19,742 nucleotides of DNA, taken from a virus. Taxonomy: Duplodnaviria; Heunggongvirae; Uroviricota; Caudoviricetes. The notes under the pieces were generated by a model. It was not told where the DNA came from, searched no databases, and worked only from the letters and a program-made list of their open reading frames with translations. Shown in pieces: positions 5,639 through 19,358 of this stretch. The translations under genes and the position numbers were made by a program. The stretch lies in IMG/VR virus record IMGVR_UViG_2534681835_000041; one strand, 5' to 3'. Position 1 is the first letter of the stretch. Each line of letters begins with the position of its first letter.

Positions 5639-5692
5639 TGAACCGCCCCGGAAATCCTGGAGACTAAACTCCCTGAGAAAGAGGTAAACAGG

Positions 5693-6019
5693 ATGACTAA
5701 AAATACTCGTTTTTCCCCCGAAGTCCGTCAGCGGGCGATTCGTATGGTTCTGGAAAGTCAGGATGAATATGACTCACAGTGGGCGGCAATTTGTTCCATT
5801 GCCCCAAAGATTGGCTGTACGCCGGAGACTCTGCGTGTCTGGGTTCGCCAGCATGAGCGGGATACCGGGGGCGGTGATGGTGGGCTCACCAGCGCTGAAC
5901 GTCAGCGTCTGAAAGAGCTGGAACGTGAAAATCGTGAACTGCGCCGCAGTAACGATATCCTTCGCCAGGCTTCCGCTTATTTTGCGAAGGCGGAGTTCGA
6001 CCGCCTCTGGAAAAAATGA
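5693..6019 (+). CDS. IS3-family transposase OrfA (HTH, leucine-zipper)
   Basis: 108 aa '[22 protein letters not shown]...[30 protein letters not shown]'; ends in an A6 tract at 6011-6016 overlapping the orfB start. Confidence 0.9.
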
Positions 6020-6906
6020 TGCCACTGCTGGATAAGCTGCGTGAGCAGTACGGGGTCGGACCGGTATGCAGCGAACTGCATATTGCCCCGTCAACGTATT
6101 ACCATTGTCAGCAACAGCGACATCATCCGGATAAACGCAGTGCCCGTGCGCAGCACGACGACTGGCTGAAGAGAGAGATACAGCGCGTATACGATGAAAA
6201 TCATCAGGTGTACGGTGTGCGTAAAGTCTGGCGTCAGTTGTTACGGGAAGGAATCAGGGTGGCCAGATGTACAGTGGCACGTCTCATGGCGGTTATGGGA
6301 CTTGCCGGTGTTCTCCGGGGTAAAAAGGTCCGTACGACCATCAGCCGGAAAGCCGTTGCCGCAGGCGACCGCGTAAACCGTCAGTTCGTGGCAGAACGAC
6401 CTGACCAGCTGTGGGTGGCTGATTTTACTTACGTCAGCACATGGCAGGGCTTCGTCTATGTGGCGTTTATCATTGATGTGTTTGCCGGATACATCGTGGG
6501 GTGGCGGGTCTCATCGTCTATGGAAACGACATTCGTGCTGGATGCGCTGGAGCAGGCGTTGTGGGCCCGTCGTCCGTCTGGCACCATCCATCACAGCGAT
6601 AAAGGCTCTCAGTATGTGTCACTGGCCTATACGGAGCGACTAAAAGAAGCCGGATTACTGGCATCAACAGGGAGTACAGGCGACTCGTATGACAACGCGA
6701 TGGCTGAGAGCATCAATGGTCTTTACAAAGCGGAGGTAATACACCGTAAGAGCTGGAAAAACCGTGCAGAAGTGGAACTGGCCACACTAACGTGGGTGGA
6801 CTGGTATAACAATCGACGATTGCTGGGAAGGCTGGGCCATACTCCTCCGGCAGAAGCAGAAAAAGCTTATTATGCTTCCATCGGAAACGATGATCTGGCA
6901 GCCTGA
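6016..6906 (+). CDS. IS3-family transposase OrfB (DDE integrase core)
   Basis: 296 aa with the rve-type core ('WVADFTYV', 'HSDKGSQY', '[15 protein letters not shown]'); ATG at 6016 overlaps the orfA stop in the -1 frame. Confidence 0.9.
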
Positions 6907-6948
6907 GTTCACAGATAAAACACTCTCCAGGAAACCCGGGGCGGTTCA

Positions 6949-7354
6949 GTTCTTTGACTGGTTCAAAAGAGTGACTGGTTCTGGGTGAATCTCCTGCACT
7001 ACCCCCTGGTGCAACTCCTGCACTACCTGGTGAATTTGCTGCACCAGATAGTGAATTATTTGCACTACTCCCTGGTGAATCTCCTGCACCATCCAGATGA
7101 AGGAGATAGATATTAATTGAGTTACCTTTTTCACCTTTCCGGGTGACTTTTTTTACCAGCCCGGAATCACAAAGGGCCGCAATATGATTCATCACAGAAC
7201 GTTTGCTAATCTCGCACTGATCAGCAATATGCTGGTAGCTGGGCCAGCACTCACCCTGATCGCTGGCATTATCAGCCAGCTTGATCAGAACCAGTTTTCG
7301 CAATGGATTACCCACTCGAATTTTCATCGCTTTAACCATCAGCTCCATACTCAT
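6949..7354 (-). pseudogene. replication initiator O-like gene (N-terminal HTH domain), 3'-truncated by IS copy 1
   Basis: N-terminus 'LRKLVLIKLADNASDQGECWPSYQHIADQCEISKRSVMNHIAALCDSGLV' resembles the N-terminal DNA-binding region of lambda O and related replisome organisers. The ORF continues through iteron-encoded low-complexity sequence and then reads into the IS. ATG at 7354 overlaps the upstream stop. Confidence 0.5.
6983..7094. repeat. five imperfect ~21-25-bp direct repeats (iteron-like) inside the O-like ORF, next to an AT-rich stretch
   Basis: Units built on gtgaat/gtgcaa..tcctgcac start at 6985, 7009, 7030, 7051 and 7076 (spacing 24/21/21/25 bp); an AT-rich segment follows at about 7100-7140. 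Confidence 0.5.
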
Positions 7355-7575
7355 GCTGCACCTCCGAGATGCTTCATGTTTTTTCCGGAGCGAAAGGCTA
7401 TAAGCGGCATACTGACGCGGTAATTACGGCCCAGCGGTTCACAAATCACCTTCTGGCATTCACGGTCAACCAGGCTAACACGTAGAACATGCCCTGCAGG
7501 CGTGGTGTACCACTGACCCGGACGAGGACAACGGAAAGTTTGATTGGTAAACCGTTTGAAAATATTCCGGATCAT
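7351..7575 (-). CDS. hypothetical small protein (74 aa, Cys-containing)
   Basis: ATG at 7575 overlaps the stop of the Rha-domain gene (ATGA), and its own stop overlaps the O-like ATG (ATGA). No motif recognised. Confidence 0.45.
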   Translation of the reverse strand: MIRNIFKRFTNQTFRCPRPGQWYTTPAGHVLRVSLVDRECQKVICEPLGRNYRVSMPLIAFRSGKNMKHLGGAA

Positions 7576-8735
7576 TTGCGCCCCCTTACCTCTGAAGGGT
7601 TCAGCGACAAATTTATGAGGCAGGCCAGCGCCGAAGCATCATTAATATAGTCATATAAGCTAACAGCCAGCGGAGATTCGGCTTTTGCCAACATAGGATA
7701 AAGCTGCTGCAGCCAGACCTGATGAATTGATGAAATGTAGGAATAGAGAACACTGGCGTTATGTGCAACGTCGCTCGGTACAGAGGGCTTTGAAAGCTGT
7801 TTCTCCATCTGGTTAAAGGCATTGATGTATGCCTCTTTGAACTGGGCAGCACGTTTGCCAGTGAAGCCCATTGCCAGGAACGCGAAGCCGTCGCGGGTGA
7901 TGTGGTAGCAAGGAAGTTTGCGAGTACCGCCGTTGGGCTGGTGTACCAAAATTGATGTCTCCGCAAAATTGCGGGCACAAAACTCTGGAGAACAATCCAA
8001 AATGCGGATCTTTTTCAGAACATCGTCATGACGTTTAGAGAAGAAGTCAGCAACAGCCAAAGAAGATGTAACAGCCTGACCATCAACGATGGCAATTTCA
8101 GGTTGAGAGAGGGTTGGGAGAGTAGTCATGGTGACAGCCCCGGTAGTCAGTTTTTCAGAAAACTCACCACATGGGACGCCAATCACAGAGGTGGTGAGAC
8201 GTACAGGGTTGGCGTTACCGGAGACTACCGAACCCGGCCCGACCGAAGTCGGCCCTGTACGCCCCACCATAATTTGGGCGTAGCAATGCTCATGACACGA
8301 AAAAACCGCATGAGCGCGGTTATGCTCAGTAATCAATTTCAGGACGCCAATCCCGGCACCCGCTTTATAAGGTGCCTGAACAGTGTAACGTCCCGGAATG
8401 GCAGAATCAATGTGCTGGTGGTCCTTCACACTCAACAAAATCACGCCTGAATTTCCACAAAGGACTAAAGCACTCATGCGGGTAGTCTTTGCGAAGATAG
8501 ATAACGCGCTGTGTTTCTGGCTCCCAACGAATAACATGAACATAAAGTCCTCTTCCGTCACGAAACCAGCGGTTAAGTTCCTGCACAACTCGCCCCCCAC
8601 AGTCAGGTAAAGTTCTCTGTGGTTACTTACAGCCAGGTGATTTGGTAATCTGCATTCATACCGTAACAACAGGTGTTCAGCGACGCTGACCACCAGCTGT
8701 TGCGACAAACGGTTATTTGCCGTTAAACTGTTCAT
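7572..8735 (-). CDS. Rha-family phage regulatory protein with an unusual ~200-aa N-terminal extension
   Basis: Residues ~205-300 ('PEIAIVDGQAVTSSLAVADFFSKRHDDVLKKIRIL...YHITRDGFAFLAMGFTGKRAAQFKEAYINAFNQME') match the Rha domain. The 387-codon frame is open from an ATG at 8735 that overlaps the CII-like stop (ATGA). Alternative internal start at 8129 would give a 185-aa Rha-only protein. Confidence 0.5.
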   Translation of the reverse strand: MNSLTANNRLSQQLVVSVAEHLLLRYECRLPNHLAVSNHRELYLTVGGELCRNLTAGFVTEEDFMFMLFVGSQKHSALSIFAKTTRMSALVLCGNSGVILLSVKDHQHIDSAIPGRYTVQAPYKAGAGIGVLKLITEHNRAHAVFSCHEHCYAQIMVGRTGPTSVGPGSVVSGNANPVRLTTSVIGVPCGEFSEKLTTGAVTMTTLPTLSQPEIAIVDGQAVTSSLAVADFFSKRHDDVLKKIRILDCSPEFCARNFAETSILVHQPNGGTRKLPCYHITRDGFAFLAMGFTGKRAAQFKEAYINAFNQMEKQLSKPSVPSDVAHNASVLYSYISSIHQVWLQQLYPMLAKAESPLAVSLYDYINDASALACLINLSLNPSEVRGRK

Positions 8736-9283
8736 GCGTTAGTTTCTCCACAGACACAAAACGCCACGACGCCCGGAGCTGCACACTCGCGGGCGTCACT
8801 CTTTTCTGGAGCGCAAAAGATTTTGTAGACCAGTGCTGCATGCTCCTGGAGCTTCGAAATTGACAGATACAACTCATCATTAATTGCTGTCTGCTCGTGT
8901 GGCTCCACTACCCCATCTTCGATTGCCGAACGAATCTGCTTTGAGTAACTCCCGATCTGTTCGATGACTTCCAGCAGGCGCTGGTTTATATCGGCGTTCT
9001 CTACTTCCTCAAGTTCAGGAAGCGATACAAACACCCCACCAGCAGACTGTGCGACAGCATCCGCAATGTAGTGAGTGCCAGCCGCGCGCTGTAAAATCAT
9101 TGCCCATCCCAGCGGGAAAATCTGATCGCCATCTGCACGAAGGCGGTTGAATAAAGCGTTCTCTGTTACATCCAGCCACTCAGCAGCTTCAGCGTAACCC
9201 CCCGGCAACGCCGCGATAGTTTTTCTGACAGCTTTCACGTACCACTCAGGCTGTTTTTCCACTTTCCAGTGATGCTTACCCAC
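8732..9283 (-). CDS. phage regulatory CII-like protein (CP76-type), tentative
   Basis: 183 aa; pattern '...ALFNRLRADGD...GGVFVSLPELEE...' resembles the CII/CP76 family as I recall it. GTG start at 9283 with AGGAG 7 nt upstream; overlaps the cro-like 3' end by 8 nt. Confidence 0.5.
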   Translation of the reverse strand: MGKHHWKVEKQPEWYVKAVRKTIAALPGGYAEAAEWLDVTENALFNRLRADGDQIFPLGWAMILQRAAGTHYIADAVAQSAGGVFVSLPELEEVENADINQRLLEVIEQIGSYSKQIRSAIEDGVVEPHEQTAINDELYLSISKLQEHAALVYKIFCAPEKSDARECAAPGVVAFCVCGETNA

Positions 9284-9633: not shown

Positions 9634-10326
9634 ATGAACATAGGAAATCGAGTCAGACAACTTCGCCAGGCGAAGAACATGAAAATCGCCGATCTCGCTG
9701 AAGCAATAGGAGTGGATGCGGCGAATATCTCGCGCCTCGAAACAGGTAAGCAGAAACAATTCACTGAACAAGCCCTGAGTAATATTGCCAGGAGCTTAGG
9801 TGTTGATATTGCTGATCTCTTTACCTCAGACCTCAAAAGTAATACTGTATGTAAAAACAGTATTAGTGAGGATGTTGCGCAGGTGAAGGATGTATTCCGT
9901 ATTGAAATGCTGGATGTCAGTGCCAGTGCGGGAAATGGCCTTATCCAGGGCGGTGATGTCATTGATGTGATTCATGCCATTGAATACAGAACTGATAATG
10001 CTGTATCGATGTTTGGTGGACGACCAGCAAATCACATTAAAGTTATCAACGTTCGTGGGGACAGTATGTGTCCAACCATTGAGCCAGGAGATCTCATCTT
10101 CGTTGATATCAGTATCAATCAGTTTGATGGGGATGGTATATATGTATTTGGTTTTGATGATAAAATTTACGTCAAACGACTGCAAATGATACCTGATAAA
10201 CTGCTGGTAATTTCTGATAATCAGATTTACCGCGAATGGGGAATTACCAGCGAAAACGAACATCGGTTTATGGTCTTTGGAAAGGTCTTAATCAGTCAGT
10301 CACAAACCCTTAAGCGACACAATTAA
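9634..10326 (+). CDS. CI-like phage repressor (HTH plus S24 LexA-type autopeptidase domain)
   Basis: N-terminal HTH ('MKIADLAEAIGVDAANISRLETG'); C-terminal S24 motifs 'VRGDSMCPTIEPGD' (Ser nucleophile) and 'KIYVKRL' (Lys). Confidence 0.8.
   Translation: MNIGNRVRQLRQAKNMKIADLAEAIGVDAANISRLETGKQKQFTEQALSNIARSLGVDIADLFTSDLKSNTVCKNSISEDVAQVKDVFRIEMLDVSASAGNGLIQGGDVIDVIHAIEYRTDNAVSMFGGRPANHIKVINVRGDSMCPTIEPGDLIFVDISINQFDGDGIYVFGFDDKIYVKRLQMIPDKLLVISDNQIYREWGITSENEHRFMVFGKVLISQSQTLKRHN
9843..9862. promoter_or_regulatory. near-consensus LexA (SOS) box inside the cI coding sequence
   Basis: TACTGTATGTAAAAACAGTA, against consensus TACTGT-(AT)4-ACAGTA: both outer hexamers match exactly. A possible -35 TTTACC at 9820-9825 places the box over a -10 position (TACTGT). 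Confidence 0.5.
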
Positions 10327-13924: not shown

Positions 13925-14277
13925 AGCTGATCCTGCCTTTCCCGCCCAGCGTGAACACGTACTGGCGACACCCCAACAAAGGGGCGTTTGCTGGTAAGAG
14001 TCTGATAAGCGCAGCGGGGCGCAAATTCCAGAGCGCGGCATGCGCAGCAATAGTTGAGCAGTTACGTCGTCTGCCGAAACCAACGTCGGCACCTGCTTCA
14101 GTGGAGATCGTGTTGTTTCCTCCGGATAACCGGATCCGCGATCTGGACAACTATAACAAGGCGCTGTTTGACGCCCTGACCCACGCGGGTGTGTGGGAAG
14201 ACGACAGACAGGTGAAAAGAATGCTGGTGGAGTGGGGACCGGTTATCCCGAAAGGGAAGGTCGAGATCACTATCTGA
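13921..14277 (+). CDS. rusA: RusA-family Holliday junction resolvase, 3' end replaced by the IS insertion
   Basis: 'LPFPPSVNTYWRH...RDLDNYNKALFDALTHAGVWEDDRQV' matches RusA. The stop codon TGA (14275-14277) is supplied by the first bases of the IS; the displaced 11-codon tail is found after the IS at 15588-15623. Confidence 0.75.
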   Translation: MKLILPFPPSVNTYWRHPNKGAFAGKSLISAAGRKFQSAACAAIVEQLRRLPKPTSAPASVEIVLFPPDNRIRDLDNYNKALFDALTHAGVWEDDRQVKRMLVEWGPVIPKGKVEITI

Positions 14278-14316
14278 ACCGCCCCGGGTTTCCTGGAGAG
14301 TGTTTTATCTGTGAAC

Positions 14317-15207
14317 TCAGGCTGCCAGATCATCGTTTCCGATGGAAGCATAATAAGCTTTTTCTGCTTCTGCCGGAGGAGTATGGCCCAGCCTTCCCAG
14401 CAATCGTCGATTGTTATACCAGTCCACCCACGTTAGTGTGGCCAGTTCCACTTCTGCACGGTTTTTCCAGCTCTTACGGTGTATTACCTCCGCTTTGTAA
14501 AGACCATTGATGCTCTCAGCCATCGCGTTGTCATACGAGTCGCCTGTACTCCCTGTTGATGCCAGTAATCCGGCTTCTTTTAGTCGCTCCGTATAGGCCA
14601 GTGACACATACTGAGAGCCTTTATCGCTGTGATGGATGGTGCCAGACGGACGACGGGCCCACAACGCCTGCTCCAGCGCATCCAGCACGAATGTCGTTTC
14701 CATAGACGATGAGACCCGCCACCCCACGATGTATCCGGCAAACACATCAATGATAAACGCCACATAGACGAAGCCCTGCCATGTGCTGACGTAAGTAAAA
14801 TCAGCCACCCACAGCTGGTCAGGTCGTTCTGCCACGAACTGACGGTTTACGCGGTCGCCTGCGGCAACGGCTTTCCGGCTGATGGTCGTACGGACCTTTT
14901 TACCCCGGAGAACACCGGCAAGTCCCATAACCGCCATGAGACGTGCCACTGTACATCTGGCCACCCTGATTCCTTCCCGTAACAACTGACGCCAGACTTT
15001 ACGCACACCGTACACCTGATGATTTTCATCGTATACGCGCTGTATCTCTCTCTTCAGCCAGTCGTCGTGCTGCGCACGGGCACTGCGTTTATCCGGATGA
15101 TGTCGCTGTTGCTGACAATGGTAATACGTTGACGGGGCAATATGCAGTTCGCTGCATACCGGTCCGACCCCGTACTGCTCACGCAGCTTATCCAGCAGTG
15201 GCATCAT
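14317..15207 (-). CDS. IS3-family transposase OrfB (copy 2)
   Basis: Identical 296-aa translation to 6016-6906. Confidence 0.9.
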
Positions 15208-15530
15208 TTTTTCCAGAGGCGGTCGAACTCCGCCTTCGCAAAATAAGCGGAAGCCTGGCGAAGGATATCGTTACTGCGGCGCAGTTCACGATTTTCACGT
15301 TCCAGCTCTTTCAGACGCTGACGTTCAGCGCTGGTGAGCCCACCATCACCGCCCCCGGTATCCCGCTCATGCTGGCGAACCCAGACACGCAGAGTCTCCG
15401 GCGTACAGCCAATCTTTGGGGCAATGGAACAAATTGCCGCCCACTGTGAGTCATATTCATCCTGACTTTCCAGAACCATACGAATCGCCCGCTGACGGAC
15501 TTCGGGGGAAAAACGAGTATTTTTAGTCAT
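15204..15530 (-). CDS. IS3-family transposase OrfA (copy 2)
   Basis: Identical 108-aa translation to 5693-6019. Confidence 0.9.
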
Positions 15531-15642
15531 CCTGTTTACCTCTTTCTCAGGGAGTTTAGTCTCCAGGAAACCCGGGGCGGTTCAATCAGTAAGTACGAGA
15601 AAACGGCGGGTGCAGCCGCCTGATCAAGAGGAGAAACGAAGT

Positions 15643-16441: not shown

Positions 16442-17437
16442 GTGACCGTGAGAGCGCTACTGACCCCTGAAATTGCCCCGCGTATGGGGATCGTATTGTT
16501 CAGGCCCGGTTCAGAGCTGATGCCCCTGTTTATGCAGGGGCGTGTCCTGCTGGAGCCTGAGCCGGAACGTTATTCATCTTTCGCCAGTGGTGCCGTTCCG
16601 GCGGCATCACAACCGCTGGCGGATGATCCTGCCGTTCGGGCCGTGTTCCGCAATGAGGCAGTGATTCGTCGTGCTGGTGGAGTGGAATGTCTTGAACGCT
16701 GGTTACTTCGTGAAAAAGGTTGCCAGTGGCCTCATTCCGACTGGCACAGCGAGAACATGACCACAATGCGACACACGCCGGGCGCAATCCGTCTGTGCTG
16801 GCACTGCGATAACCAGCTGCGCGATCAGTTCACGGAACGGCTGGAATCAATGGCAACGGATAACTGTACCCGCTGGGTGTTGTCTGTTGTGCGTCGGGAT
16901 CTCGGTTTTGATGACAGTCACGTTGTGACAATGCCGGAACTGTGCTGGTGGCTGATTCGTAATGACCTGGCGGATGCCTTACCGGAAAGTGCAGCCCGTA
17001 AGGCACTGAGATTACCGAAGCCTGTTGTGCCGTCTGTCACCCGGGAAAGTGACCTTGTGCCTTCGGTTCCTGCCACCAGCATCATCCAGGATAAAGCGAA
17101 AAAGGTGCTGGCGCTGAAAGTGGATCCGGAGTCGCCGGAGTCTTTTATGTTACGCCCAAAACGTCGCCGCTGGGTTAATGAAAAGTACACGCGCTGGGTT
17201 AAGACACAGCCGTGTGCATGTTGTGGAAAGCCCGCTGATGATCCCCACCACCTGATAGGCCACGGTCAGTGTGGAATGGGTACAAAAGCGCATGACCTTT
17301 TTGTGTTGCCTTTGTGCAGAAAGCATCACGACGAGCTGCATGCGGATACCGTGGCATTTGAAGAGAAGTATGGCTCTCAGCTGGAGCTGATATTTCGTTT
17401 TATCGATCGTGCGCTGGCAATTGGCGTACTGGCGTAA
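16442..17437 (+). CDS. DUF968-like protein with C-terminal HNH-type Cys/His motif
   Basis: C-terminus 'CACCGKPADDPHHLIGHGQCGMGTKAHDLFVLPLCRKHHDELH' is HNH-like, as in YdfU-type proteins. GTG start at 16442 directly after the KilA-N stop; the true start is uncertain. Confidence 0.6.
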   Translation: MTVRALLTPEIAPRMGIVLFRPGSELMPLFMQGRVLLEPEPERYSSFASGAVPAASQPLADDPAVRAVFRNEAVIRRAGGVECLERWLLREKGCQWPHSDWHSENMTTMRHTPGAIRLCWHCDNQLRDQFTERLESMATDNCTRWVLSVVRRDLGFDDSHVVTMPELCWWLIRNDLADALPESAARKALRLPKPVVPSVTRESDLVPSVPATSIIQDKAKKVLALKVDPESPESFMLRPKRRRWVNEKYTRWVKTQPCACCGKPADDPHHLIGHGQCGMGTKAHDLFVLPLCRKHHDELHADTVAFEEKYGSQLELIFRFIDRALAIGVLA

Positions 17438-17450
17438 GTGGAGAACGAGC

Positions 17451-18203
17451 ATGAACCTTGAAGCCTTACCGAAATATTACTCCCCGAAATCTCCAAAACT
17501 GAGCGATGACGCACCGGCGACAGGCTCTGGTGGTTTAACAATTACGGATGTGATGGCTGCGCAGGGGATGGTGCAGTCAAAAGCACCGCTTGGGTTTGCT
17601 TTATTCCTGGCAAAAGTTGGTGTTCAGGATCCTCAGTTTGCGATTGAAGGTCTGCTCAATTACGCGATGGCACTGGATAACCCGACATTGAATAAATTGA
17701 GTGAAGAAACCCGGCTACAGATCATTCCTTACCTTGTGAATTTTGCCTTTGCTGATTATTCCAGGTCTGCGGCAAGTAAGGCTCGCTGTGAGCATTGTGC
17801 TGGTACTGGATTTCATAATGTATTGCGCGAGGTGGTGAAACACTCCAGAAGCGGGGAATCTGTTATTAAGGAAGAGTGGGTGAAGGAACTATGTCAGCAT
17901 TGTCATGGTAAGGGAGAAGTCAGCACAGCATGCAGAGGGTGCAAGGGTAAAGGTATTGTCCTGGATGAAAAAAGAACCCGGCTTCATGGCACGCCTGTTT
18001 ATAAGGTTTGTGGGCGTTGCAATGGAAACCGGTTTAGCCGTTTACCAACCACACTGGCGCGGCTTCATGTCCAGAAGCTGGTACCAGACCTGACGGATTA
18101 TCAGTGGTACAAAGGATATGCAGATGTCATTGATAAACTGGTTACAAAGTGCTGGCAGGAAGAAGCATATGCAGAGATACAATTGAGAAAGGTGACAAGA
18201 TAA
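17451..18203 (+). CDS. putative late-gene antiterminator (Q-like), with four CxxCxGxG repeats
   Basis: Position immediately upstream of a pR'/tR'-like promoter-terminator pair and the tRNA island. Contains CEHCAGTG, CQHCHGKG, CRGCKGKG, CGRCNGNR (a DnaJ-type zinc-finger pattern). ATG at 17451 with GGAG upstream. Function inferred mainly from context. Confidence 0.45.
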   Translation: MNLEALPKYYSPKSPKLSDDAPATGSGGLTITDVMAAQGMVQSKAPLGFALFLAKVGVQDPQFAIEGLLNYAMALDNPTLNKLSEETRLQIIPYLVNFAFADYSRSAASKARCEHCAGTGFHNVLREVVKHSRSGESVIKEEWVKELCQHCHGKGEVSTACRGCKGKGIVLDEKRTRLHGTPVYKVCGRCNGNRFSRLPTTLARLHVQKLVPDLTDYQWYKGYADVIDKLVTKCWQEEAYAEIQLRKVTR

Positions 18204-18704: not shown

Positions 18705-18780
18705 GGCCCTTTAGCTCAGTGGTGAGAGCGAGCGACTCATAATCGCCAGGTCGCTGGTTCAAATCCAGCAAGGGCCACCA
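18705..18780 (+). tRNA. ileZ: tRNA-Ile2 (anticodon CAT, lysidine type) or tRNA-Met
   Basis: 76-nt cloverleaf folded by hand: acceptor ggccctt/aagggcc, D-stem gctc/gagc, anticodon loop ctCATaa, T-loop ttcaaat, encoded CCA. Close to my recollection of E. coli ileX. Symbol given by analogy with the Stx-phage ileZ-argN-argO cluster. Confidence 0.85.
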
Positions 18781-18789
18781 TATCACATA

Positions 18790-18866
18790 CCGCCATTAGC
18801 TCATCGGGATAGAGCGTCAGCCTTCGAAGCTGGCTGTGCGGGGTTCAAGTCCCCGATGGCGGTCCA
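18790..18866 (+). tRNA. argN: tRNA-Arg (anticodon TCG as read here)
   Basis: 77-nt cloverleaf: acceptor ccgccat/atggcgg, D-stem gctc/gagc, anticodon loop cTTCGaa, T-arm cgggg-ttcaagt-ccccg, encoded CCA. Symbol by analogy. Confidence 0.8.
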
Positions 18867-18879
18867 TTATCAGCATCAT

Positions 18880-18956
18880 GCGTTGTTAGCTCAGCCGGAC
18901 AGAGCAATTGCCTTCTAAGCAATCGGTCACTGGTTCGAATCCAGTACAACGCGCCA
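18880..18956 (+). tRNA. argO: tRNA-Arg (anticodon TCT, reads AGA)
   Basis: 77-nt cloverleaf: acceptor gcgttgt/acaacgc, anticodon stem attgc/gcaat with loop cTTCTaa, T-arm actgg-ttcgaat-ccagt, encoded CCA. Symbol by analogy. Confidence 0.85.
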
Positions 18957-19243
18957 CACCACACTTATCTGCCCTGACTCTCTTTTGCGGGCTTTTTATT
19001 ACAGGAAAGACACCGGACAGTGAAATGTTAAATGCCTCACAATTCAGGTAGTCGACTGTTGCCTGACATGCTGAGCGTTTGTTAAAAAAATCCTGCATGA
19101 TGAATCCCCCTGGGCGGCGGGGCATAATGACAGATGTTTGGTTGCGTATTGTATAGGCAAGTTGCGGATTCTGTCTGGTCATTGCAGAATTCACCGGGAG
19201 GCACCCGGCATCATGCTGTATACAGAGATTAGGCATATATCCA

Positions 19244-19268
19244 GGCTCCTCATCGCAGGAGCCTTTTT
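19244..19268 (+). terminator. rho-independent terminator in the tRNA-to-nanS-p gap
   Basis: Stem ggctcct / aggagcc with 6-nt loop, followed by TTTTT. Confidence 0.6.
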
Positions 19269-19273
19269 ACATG

Positions 19274-19299
19274 CAAAAAAAGCCCGAGTAGGTTCGGGC
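19274..19299 (-). terminator. minus-strand rho-independent terminator (back-to-back with the previous one)
   Basis: Hairpin gcccga-gtaggt-tcgggc (19282-19299) preceded on + by A7 (19274-19280), which is a T-run on the minus strand. Confidence 0.45.
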
Positions 19300-19358
19300 A
19301 ACAGCATGAGATACTTGCATTGTCATTTTTATCGTGTGGATTTTAACCAGGGTTTATA

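Follow-up and report, generated by a model that had tools for sequence, protein, structure and literature searches.

A probable P4 eta/kil-type nested gene with a C4/CI-type antisense-RNA switch in a lambdoid prophage of E. coli (early-right operon)

The window analyzed here is a 19,742-nucleotide stretch of viral DNA (IMG/VR record IMGVR_UViG_2534681835_000041). Within it, a lambdoid prophage of E. coli very probably carries, in its early-right operon, a nested gene of the P4 eta/kil type, arranged around an antisense-RNA switch of the C4/CI type. A long Eta-like open reading frame (ORF) begins on the stop codon of a CII-like gene and ends as a Rha protein (Table 1). A first-pass annotation had regarded residues 1-202 of this frame as an unexplained, His/Cys-rich and possibly metal-binding extension fused to Rha. 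Judged from the sequence, these residues represent no unexplained protein domain; beneath the frame lie a DUF4222 gene read in a different frame, a predicted promoter and the Rfam RNA genes IsrK and C4, all of which had been overlooked. We infer that this part of the product contains no folded domain and that its residues are determined by the DUF4222 gene, promoter and RNA genes underneath. The locus constitutes no new kind of system, and its layout has already been described for P4 eta/kil.

Table 1 Features of the nested locus in the order of transcription (positions of the window)
Feature	Position	Strand	Details
CII-like gene (YmfL, Phage_CP76)	8732..9283	minus	Pfam PF06892, E 5e-15; PGAP name ymfL
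Long Eta-like ORF	7572..8735	minus	387 codons; spans the nested elements, ends as Rha protein
DUF4222 gene	8407..8586	minus	59 aa, GTG start; nested in long ORF, different frame
Predicted internal sigma-70-type promoter	8382..8410	minus	-35 TTGATT 8410-8405, 17-nt spacer, -10 TACACT 8387-8382
IsrK / P4 seqA-type sRNA	8299..8375	minus	Rfam RF01394, 59.3 bits (gathering score 50)
C4 target b1 in IsrK	8350-8344	minus	TTGGCGT
C4 target a1 in IsrK	8334-8326	minus	GAUUACUGA
IsrK intrinsic terminator	stem-loop 8321-8304, then U-run	minus	terminator prediction and fold
C4 / P4 CI-type antisense RNA	8187..8274	minus	Rfam RF01695, 82.3 bits (gathering score 45), full length 1-87
Conserved C4 AUG	8270-8268	minus	
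Leader from C4 AUG	8130..8270	minus	47 codons, in frame with ATG 8129
C4 a' loop	8233-8222	minus	GUUCGGUAGUCU
C4 b' segment	about 8216-8209	minus	AACGCCAA
Hairpin sharing 5' strand with C4 3' stem	8157..8198	minus	fold
C4 target b2, loop of hairpin 8157..8198	8182-8176	minus	TTGGCGT
C4 target a2 and adjoining GGGG	8138..8148	minus	a2 GACUACCG 8148-8141; Shine-Dalgarno-like GGGG 8141-8138
Rha protein proper	7572..8129	minus	185 aa; PF09669, E 2.9e-27, residues 21-110

The long ORF is uninterrupted through all 387 codons, and PGAP annotates its entire length as one protein, WP_001087353.1. At the upstream junction, the ATG of the long ORF (8735-8733) and the TGA of the CII-like gene (8734-8732) overlap as ATGA. 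The long open frame upstream of the Rha domain and its start on the CII-like stop, both claimed by the first-pass annotation, are thus present, and the strings KDHQHID and SCHEHCYAQ are both found in the translation. From sequence comparison, the frame and its ATGA junction are probably meaningful, because the frame is open in enterobacterial relatives, stop codons are depleted specifically in this frame, and P4 eta has the same architecture. This part of the earlier reading stands; the unexplained metal-binding fused domain does not.

Inside the extension, the stretch 8407-8586 encodes the DUF4222 protein, which matches Pfam PF13973 (E 9.5e-14, 51.1 bits against a cut-off of 27) and PHROG 1343 (E 1e-36). 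The variable columns lie mostly at third positions of the DUF4222 codons (15/10/39 for the three positions, p=1.3e-5), amino-acid identity is 83% in the DUF4222 frame versus 47-49% in the long frame, and the DUF4222 protein is still conserved at 42-50% identity in other genera. This pattern indicates that the DUF4222 frame, not the long ORF, is under protein-level selection here, contrary to the proposed domain fusion. The -35 box of the predicted internal promoter overlaps the DUF4222 stop codon. In every aligned locus, among them Gifsy-1 (TTGACA/TATATT) and P4 (TTGCCT/TATAGT), its hexamers precede the IsrK 5' end at a constant position, and the predicted promoter is the positional equivalent of Gifsy-1 PisrK and P4 PLE. 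The TTGATT-N17-TACACT site is absent from the list returned by a generic promoter scan. An exact copy of the previously noted CTGT-N8-ACAG site is located at 8617-8632. We rejected it as a LexA box of the system: ST64B and Citrobacter have lost it, it does not occur where DUF4222 is preceded by another gene, and with one mismatch allowed the window contains 10 matches versus 6.9 expected.

The two RNA genes follow the promoter. IsrK possesses its own Rho-independent terminator, and its region gives a weak additional match to c4-a1b1 (21.6 bits). C4 and IsrK are found in tandem in 15/15 phage loci fetched and also in P4, and C4 is present in Gifsy-1 as well. C4 adopts a three-helix structure, of which 27/27 base pairs form in 15 sequences, with both sides changed in 10 pairs; sliding the partners as a control leaves about 40% paired. 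Its minimum free energy is -47.7 kcal/mol (z = -6.0), and the fold equals the consensus structure. The C4 segments a' and b' are predicted to pair with a1/b1 in IsrK and with b2/a2 downstream. In the present copy, Watson-Crick pairing with C4 extends over 8 nt between a2 and the a' loop and over 7 nt each for b2 and b1, and a1 forms 9 pairs including 2 G-U pairs, as read from the sequence by eye. The b'/b2 pairing comprises 7 nt in every locus compared. The a2 run is 8-11 nt long in nearly all enterobacterial loci, and in some other loci it is 6-10 nt or is missed by the exact-run test. Across 37 related loci, a2/b2 co-vary with a'/b' and many different specificities occur; the two best complementary runs sum to a mean of 15.8 with the own downstream region versus 7.8 with those of other loci. 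Conservation in the extension follows this RNA base pairing, not the encoded residues. In the hairpin that presents b2, CUCACCAC (8198-8191) pairs with GUGGUGAG (8170-8163). The stem is directly followed on its 3' side by UUUUCU (8162-8157), GGTGGTG in this region is invariant across the alignment, and from its fold the hairpin may act as a terminator or attenuator.

The second downstream site, a2, abuts the Shine-Dalgarno-like GGGG run of the Rha start ATG 8129, and in most phage loci about 9-11 nt separate the end of the a2 match from the ATG. In the 387-codon ORF, the Rha domain (PF09669, 93.9 bits, cut-off 29.9) occupies residues 223-312, and the Rha protein is assigned to PHROG 821/518. 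This domain is normally N-terminal in the Rha family, and it is N-terminal here if translation starts at ATG 8129, which lies 58 nt past C4. Enterobacterial relatives keep the ATG, its Shine-Dalgarno sequence and an N-terminus reading MAT(I/V)P / MTTLP; in the present copy the Shine-Dalgarno sequence is weak (GGGG vs GGAGG). Rha relatives without C4 have no long extension; their median upstream open stretch is 36 codons, and they start near the equivalent of 8129. ATG 8129 is predicted to be the RNA-controlled start of the 185-aa Rha protein, because the C4 loops pair downstream in 37 loci, with one site abutting its Shine-Dalgarno sequence.

The long frame is kept open beyond expectation in enterobacterial relatives. 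Between the C4 AUG and the Rha ATG, the frame is in phase in 21/28 distinct enterobacterial segments and fully open in each of these 21. Against a shuffle null that ignores phylogeny, with the other two frames as internal control, this stretch contains 0 stops in the long frame versus 14.7 expected (0/2000 shuffles with zero stops), and the IsrK part contains 7 versus 18.6 expected (P=0.001). The stop counts of the other two frames match their null, and the depletion is confined to the long frame. Further upstream, the +1 frame of DUF4222 is open in 8/9 homologues adjoining the module; with the gene next to the module it is open even at 42-50% protein identity, but it is not open in L020 or L024. 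Indels in the alignment sum to multiples of 3 in several lineages. As proof of coding, we discarded indel phase: counted by hand from the alignment and segment lengths, there are about 5 frame-preserving versus about 6 frame-breaking events, which is not significant alone. Outside Enterobacterales, the frame is out of phase or interrupted by stops between C4 and the Rha ATG in 21/34 C4-bearing Rha loci, so the module can work without ribosomes passing through the RNAs. Such breaks between the two parts in homologues also speak against the fused protein proposed earlier.

Several alternative explanations should be weighed against a nested gene of the eta/kil type. The long ORF might be an annotation artefact, with DUF4222, the two RNAs and the 185-aa Rha protein as the sole real products. 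The frame would then be open by chance, one frame of a conserved, structured and G+C-rich RNA sequence being free of stops. This would fit the observations that long-frame residues are not conserved where nucleotides are free to vary, that compensatory stem changes lead to radical residue changes, that PGAP and phage annotators assign the start differently, and that Marinomonas, Endozoicomonas, Vibrio, Aeromonas, Erwinia and Salmonella phage 118970_sal3 have a disrupted frame; the low AlphaFold2 confidence described below points the same way. We nevertheless consider an artefact unlikely, as it leaves aside the restriction of stop depletion to the long frame while the other two frames sit at the same null, the indel totals in multiples of 3, the open +1 frame over diverged DUF4222 genes beside the module (not L020, L024), and the ATG placed on the upstream stop, an arrangement shared with P4, whose eta is reported to be expressed. 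A more restricted, purely Gifsy-1-type arrangement would have translation start at the C4 AUG (8270) on read-through from the internal promoter, producing a 232-aa protein that continues into Rha, with short IsrK activating in trans and the frame upstream of 8270 having no role. Gifsy-1 orf45 is translated and the C4 AUG is its experimentally used first AUG (PMC4825925), and the AUG-to-ATG stretch shows the strongest stop depletion. However, no Shine-Dalgarno sequence precedes 8270, and the conservation of the AUG is explained by structure because it sits in the outer stem of C4. In addition, stop depletion reaches upstream into IsrK and DUF4222, and P4 kil, downstream of CI, is said to be the first gene translated from the P4 internal promoter. 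We regard this arrangement as possible, on the improbable side.

A folded His/Cys metal-binding N-terminal domain fused to Rha is highly improbable. The frame is indeed open and coupled to cII, and the extension is partly covered by Pfam and PHROG families. Whereas the extension could earlier not be placed in any family, residues 117-212 match Pfam Phage_ASH, the sole Pfam match of the extension; a search at E up to 1 returned no zinc or metal family. Neither string was retained as a metal site: KDHQHID overlies the end of DUF4222 and the -35 box, and SCHEHCYAQ falls on the variable stretch that separates the IsrK terminator from C4, with counterparts FLCNEQHYAQ, FLSSALTHAR and FVRTVLPRFF in relatives. 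AlphaFold2 assigns residues 1-202 a mean pLDDT of 29, with all 202 residues below 50, in a single-sequence model that is weakly informative. Together with the variation of the His/Cys clusters, these results argue against metal binding. Moreover, a different frame is selected at 8407-8586, base pairing of the RNAs rather than residues tracks conservation, and the same leader precedes unrelated proteins, namely an ORF6N protein in Gifsy-1, Kil in P4 and a derepression protein in P88.

For the nested eta/kil-type gene, we propose a working scheme modelled on P1, P4 and Gifsy-1. Transcripts from the internal promoter would mostly end at the IsrK terminator or be processed, releasing C4. C4 would mask the ribosome-binding site of the 185-aa antirepressor-type Rha protein and favour termination, with IsrK serving as a decoy or activator for C4 pairing; therefore, Rha would be made only when the IsrK/C4 balance shifts. 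Ribosomes from the cro-cII transcript, coupled through the ATGA at 8735, would translate through IsrK and C4 and thereby block the RNA structures and terminators, so that, whichever way the switch is set, early transcription would continue into Rha and the replication genes. By analogy with P4 eta, this passage of ribosomes is the likely reason why the frame stays open. A third start at the C4 AUG 8270, as in Gifsy-1 orf45, is possible. More tentatively, the Eta-like frame of lambdoid prophages in Enterobacterales might work as a ribosome-driven antiterminator and, in addition, give three nested Rha isoforms of 387, 232 and 185 aa that are differently regulated, a proposal we consider rather doubtful. 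If true, ORFs of this type that are dual-coding or overlap RNA genes would be a general design shared by thousands of E. coli prophages, not one peculiar to P4. An IS element immediately downstream has truncated the replication gene. If the prophage is defective, as may be the case, the circuit would be a relic.

The 2.2-kb region gives megablast matches in 3080/5426 complete E. coli genomes and is also matched in many Stx-converting phages. Its annotation is inconsistent among records, which describe one long "Rha family", "antirepressor", "peptidase" or "Ash family" protein; none of the records inspected shows an RNA gene at the locus. The present reading would correct the gene model, with a regulated start at 8129 and DUF4222 as a gene of its own. 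A C4/IsrK switch combined with an Eta-like frame would explain the apparent conservation of Pfam Phage_ASH and several PHROG families, and it assigns to an ORF lying over RNA genes a specific role that can be tested. The diversity of covarying a'/b' specificities suggests a way in which prophages sharing a host could keep their antirepressor switches apart.

The locus can be compared with three known systems. The immI operon of P1/P7 (c4 - icd - ant1/ant2; Citron and Schuster 1990, as cited in bioRxiv 10.1101/2020.03.17.996009) is described in that literature as containing a C4-type antisense RNA within the transcript of its own target, from which it is cut out. There, as predicted here, an a'/b' pair acts on a2/b2 over the ribosome-binding site controlling an antirepressor, and covarying loops set specificity. 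Compared with the operon as described, the present locus has no separate icd-like gene, the ribosome-binding site targeted belongs to the Rha gene itself, and a1/b1 are carried by a terminated sRNA of the IsrK type. The isrK-orf45-anrP locus of Gifsy-1 (Hershko-Shalev et al. 2016, PMC4825925) has the same order of promoter (predicted in the present locus), IsrK with terminator, C4-like RNA (STnc1160) and antirepressor-type gene. In both loci IsrK is complementary to the C4 region and a leader ORF begins at the conserved C4 AUG, the leader 8130..8270 being the equivalent of orf45. However, orf45 ends in an ATGA at anrP, indicating translational coupling, whereas the leader here is in frame with Rha; the Gifsy-1 locus lies downstream of the Q-like antQ and the present one downstream of cII. 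AnrP has an ORF6N domain in place of Rha, and the two proteins show no homology (E 0.7).

The closest correspondence is with P4 eta (8767..8168, 199 aa), which is coupled to the upstream gene, with its ATGs on the ORF88 stop, and which contains kil and overlaps the CI RNA. Both long ORFs begin on the stop of the upstream gene (ATGATGATG in P4, ATGA here), and both cross an internal promoter (predicted in the present locus), seqA (Rfam isrK) and CI (Rfam C4) in one frame. According to Forti et al. 1999 as summarised in PMC10111431, the P4 internal promoter is constitutive, and eta is reportedly translated from an upstream promoter, its translation preventing premature transcription termination. 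In both cases a shorter gene in the same frame, equipped with a Shine-Dalgarno sequence and an ATG of its own, starts 55-58 nt past the RNA; in P4, kil starts 55 nt past CI at GGAGGCTGCCATCATGGCTAC, a motif common to relatives of the window. Phage_ASH matches both long ORFs, and residues 22-146 of P4 Eta, which match the full model, overlie the seqA and CI RNA genes. Because of this shared match and the same layout, the long ORF is taken to be the same frame as P4 Eta. The two loci differ in that the nested protein is the 65-aa Kil in P4 and a 185-aa Rha-domain protein here, that the present copy resides in a lambdoid prophage behind cII/ymfL, and that the stretch from the coupled start to the promoter is longer by 360 nt, which include the differently framed DUF4222 gene. 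The role of eta is reported from P4, whereas the layout here is known from the sequence. Within this shared arrangement, Rha occupies the position taken by kil in P4 and by anrP in Gifsy-1.

The minus-strand ORF at 7572..8735 runs for 387 codons without a stop, and its ATG (8735-8733) shares the sequence ATGA with the TGA of the CII-like gene (8732..9283; Pfam match Phage_CP76, PGAP name ymfL), as the first-pass annotation had described. The Rha domain (PF09669, 93.9 bits) occupies residues 223-312, and an in-frame ATG is located at 8129. E. coli O111:H8 strain 8E has a prophage that matches the window with 100% identity, and PGAP labels the entire long ORF there "Rha family phage regulatory protein". 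The region under its N-terminal 202 residues is probably an RNA switch with a nested ORF of the P4 type. A hairpin, AACGG-N7-CCGTT followed by TTGT (window 8708-8724, minus strand), is found directly past the cII stop, within the first long-ORF codons; it is kept in ST64B and Citrobacter, where the sequence 3' of it is replaced with the frame preserved.

Features under the N-terminal extension and at the Rha start, in their order on the minus strand
Feature	Position	Strand	Details
Spacer, 145 nt	8731-8587	-	First segment under the extension
DUF4222 gene, 59 aa, frame different from that of the long ORF	8586..8407	-	Pfam E 9.5e-14; PHROG 1343 E 1e-36
Promoter-like site TTGATT-N17-TACACT, conserved	8410-8382	-	-35 box overlaps the DUF4222 stop codon
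IsrK-family sRNA with intrinsic terminator	8375..8299	-	Rfam 59.3 bits (gathering score 50)
Variable spacer, 24 nt, between IsrK and C4		-	
C4-family antisense RNA	8274..8187	-	Rfam 82.3 bits (gathering score 45)
Hairpin then U-run, 3' of C4	8198-8157	-	
Short target site (a2) adjoining G-rich ribosome-binding site, then ATG 8129	8148-8141 (a2)	-	a2 is GACUACCG, followed by GGGG

IsrK and C4 are found in tandem in all 15 phage loci detected by blastn and in P4, and C4 is where it would be expected in Gifsy-1. In each of 15 sequences, the C4 consensus structure forms with all of its 27 pairs, 10 of which show both-side changes; when the partners are slid by 1-3 columns as a control, about 40% of cells pair. 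The window C4 folds into this consensus structure (-47.7 kcal/mol, z = -6.0) and contains an AUG (8270-8268) in frame with ATG 8129, 47 codons upstream of it. The loop of hairpin 2 (a') and the single strand after it (b') are both complementary to sites just downstream of C4, arranged in the order b2 (7 nt) and a2, as well as to b1/a1 within IsrK. Almost every enterobacterial locus has an a2 run of 8-11 nt; in some of the more distant loci the run is shorter or escapes the exact-run test. Loop sequences differ widely among 37 loci, and the combined length of the best two complementary runs averages 15.8 nt with the own downstream region versus 7.8 nt with those of other loci. In most phage loci, a2 ends about 9-11 nt upstream of the conserved ATG and enters the Shine-Dalgarno sequence (for example, GTCAACGGAG followed by GCTGCCATCATG). 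The pairing has the same logic as that of P1 c4, as outlined in the passage of bioRxiv 10.1101/2020.03.17.996009 that cites Citron and Schuster 1990, and identifies ATG 8129, on sequence grounds, as the predicted RNA-controlled start of a 185-aa Rha protein.

The first-pass annotation had viewed the upstream residues as an extension fused to Rha, and the homologs bear on this directly. Scanning species-representative genomes with the 185-aa Rha protein yielded 74 loci, 34 of which carry a C4 RNA whose end lies about 55 nt upstream of the Rha start. The Rha frame is open back through C4 in 13 of these 34, every one from Enterobacterales, and has stops or a different phase in the other 21 (Marinomonas, Endozoicomonas, Vibrio, Aeromonas, Erwinia, and a few others). 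Thirty-four Rha relatives without C4 have a median of 36 open codons upstream of the residue-1 equivalent, with at least 100 in one only, and a frameshift splits the long ORF in Salmonella phage 118970_sal3. The split and short frames thus place the extension outside the Rha family; it is a companion of the RNA module, which also stands ahead of unrelated proteins, including ORF6N (AnrP) in Gifsy-1, Kil in P4, and a derepression protein in P88. In P2-like phages (L008/L009, 1705-2361), the isrK-C4 cassette precedes a 'derepression protein' gene; the Ash frame there is +2 nt out of phase with the derepression ATG and still open for about 120 more codons, overlapping the gene.

The strings KDHQHID and SCHEHCYAQ, formerly taken as signs of metal binding, do occur in the translation. 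Both were rejected as metal sites: the codons of KDHQHID coincide with the DUF4222 C-terminus and the -35 box, and those of SCHEHCYAQ with the variable spacer, where the string is not conserved. A Pfam search of the extension gave no match to a metal-binding family. Its only Pfam match is Phage_ASH (PF10554) at residues 117-212, although the first-pass annotation could place the extension in no family, and the matched nt 8100-8387 (minus strand) coincide precisely with the pair of RNA genes plus the Rha start. PHROGs 821, 3960, 995, and 6928 also match the long-frame translation of the isrK/seqA and C4/CI region, and the Ash match in P4 (L094, 8330-8704) likewise falls on the RNA region. Since these models match translated RNA genes, much of their apparent protein conservation probably reflects RNA constraints. 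A single-sequence AlphaFold2 model of the extension has pLDDT below 50 throughout, which is weak evidence alone.

Where the long frame overlaps DUF4222, the selected frame is that of DUF4222. Variable columns at its codon positions 1/2/3 number 15/10/39 in eight homologous copies (chi-square p = 1.3e-5), and amino-acid identity between the two most diverged copies is 83% in this frame versus 47-49% in the long frame. Loci of Serratia, Hafnia phage, Symbiopectobacterium, and Izhakiella still hold a recognisable DUF4222 protein (42-50% identity). Its +1 frame, which corresponds to the long frame, is stop-free in 8 of the 9 homologs adjoining an isrK-C4 module, three of them at 42-50% protein identity, whereas the +2 frame holds 2-8 stops in these nine. 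In the single exception (record L020) the +1 frame contains 5 stops, and in a DUF4222 copy far from any module (L024) it contains 3.

Between the C4 AUG and the downstream ATG, 21 of 28 distinct enterobacterial segments are in phase (135, 138, or 141 nt). None of these 21 has a stop in the long frame; per segment, the remaining frames hold 1.6 and 2.1 stops on average. A null model that shuffles nucleotides inside alignment columns (2000 shuffles) and ignores phylogeny predicts 14.7 long-frame stops versus 0 observed, and 0/2000 shuffles reached zero; the other two frames fit this null (26 observed versus 23.8 expected, and 44 versus 44.5). Applied to the IsrK-to-AUG stretch, this test counts 7 stops versus 18.6 expected (P = 0.001), with depletion in the long frame only. 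Indel events alone reveal no significant preference for the long frame. As judged from these alignments, the open long frame is no accident. Given the overall reading as a P4-type switch, the balance tips slightly towards the frame being functionally translated.

The comparisons demonstrate which parts are present, how they pair, where the regulated start lies, and that the frame is conserved; homology suggests how the parts may work together. Transcripts from the internal promoter would yield terminated IsrK and processed C4, with C4 masking the Rha ribosome-binding site and IsrK competing for C4. On the early transcript, ribosomes from cII would translate the long frame across IsrK and C4, which may block the RNA structures and terminators and let transcription reach Rha and the replication genes. 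For the N-terminal 202 residues, translation itself would matter, not their sequence.

Two identical 1311-nt IS3-family copies (window 5639-6949 and 14274-15584; IS1203 family by PGAP), each holding an ALIL frameshift pseudoknot, flank the 7.3-kb immunity segment in inverted orientation. Next to the Rha operon on its downstream side, a DnaD/HTH_36 replication gene (6713-7354) is truncated by the left copy; the Q antiterminator (17409-18203, plus strand) and the tRNAs are on the strand opposite to cro-cII-Rha. Together these observations suggest an IS-mediated inversion or a chimeric, probably defective prophage. Downstream of Q (18705-19334) are tRNA-Met, two tRNA-Arg, and matches to the STnc100 (175.6 bits) and AgvB (56.2 bits) sRNAs, a cluster typical of Stx-type lambdoid prophages of EHEC. 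Two LexA-box-type CTGT-N8-ACAG palindromes are present. The one previously noted in the extension (8617-8632) is indeed exact and is located in the cII-DUF4222 spacer, but the nearest diverged relatives, ST64B and Citrobacter, do not keep it; the other, also exact (9845-9860), lies inside the cI repressor gene.

The locus carries different labels across E. coli RefSeq (L090, L091) and phage records (L001, L011, L012, L092). It is given as one 387-aa Rha or, in a strain with 98.5% identity, as DUF4222 together with a 301-aa Rha; elsewhere it is an 'antirepressor' of 287 or 181 aa, a 'peptidase', or a pair of split 'antirepressors'. C4 and IsrK RNA genes are absent from every inspected record of the locus. 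The practical value of our analysis lies in correcting this widespread mis-annotation.

In P4, whose sequence we checked directly, the eta ORF (8767..8168, 199 aa) starts at ATGATGATG across the ORF88 stop codon. It spans a promoter TTGCCT-N17-TATAGT, which we take to be PLE, then the isrK-family seqA region (8692-8615) and the C4-family CI RNA (8507-8420), and, still in frame, runs on through kil (8365..8168, 65 aa). Located 55 nt past CI, the start of kil reads GGAGGCTGCCATCATGGCTAC, a motif that relatives of the window also have at their Rha start. Eta residues 22-146 match the full Phage_ASH model (E 3.8e-23). According to the passages of PMC10111431 that cite Forti et al. 1999, the internal-promoter transcript terminates early via CI/seqA interactions and produces CI, Kil results from occasional read-through, and full-length Eta is translated only from an upstream promoter, coupled to the upstream gene, its translation preventing termination. 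Gifsy-1 orf45 (45 codons) is translated and is required for anrP translation (PMC4825925); the sequence confirms its start at the conserved C4 AUG and its end in ATGA at anrP. Passages of PMC10111431 and bioRxiv 10.1101/2020.03.17.996009 already note, respectively, CI/seqA homologs within satellite "Bro-network" genes and c4 together with isrK beside a BRO-N gene in APSE phages. Each element and the nested layout are already published for P1, P4, and Gifsy-1. What may be new is the Rha effector in a lambdoid cII context, an orf45-equivalent leader fused in frame with the effector gene, the out-of-frame nesting of DUF4222 within an Eta-like ORF, and the quantitative evidence for frame maintenance.
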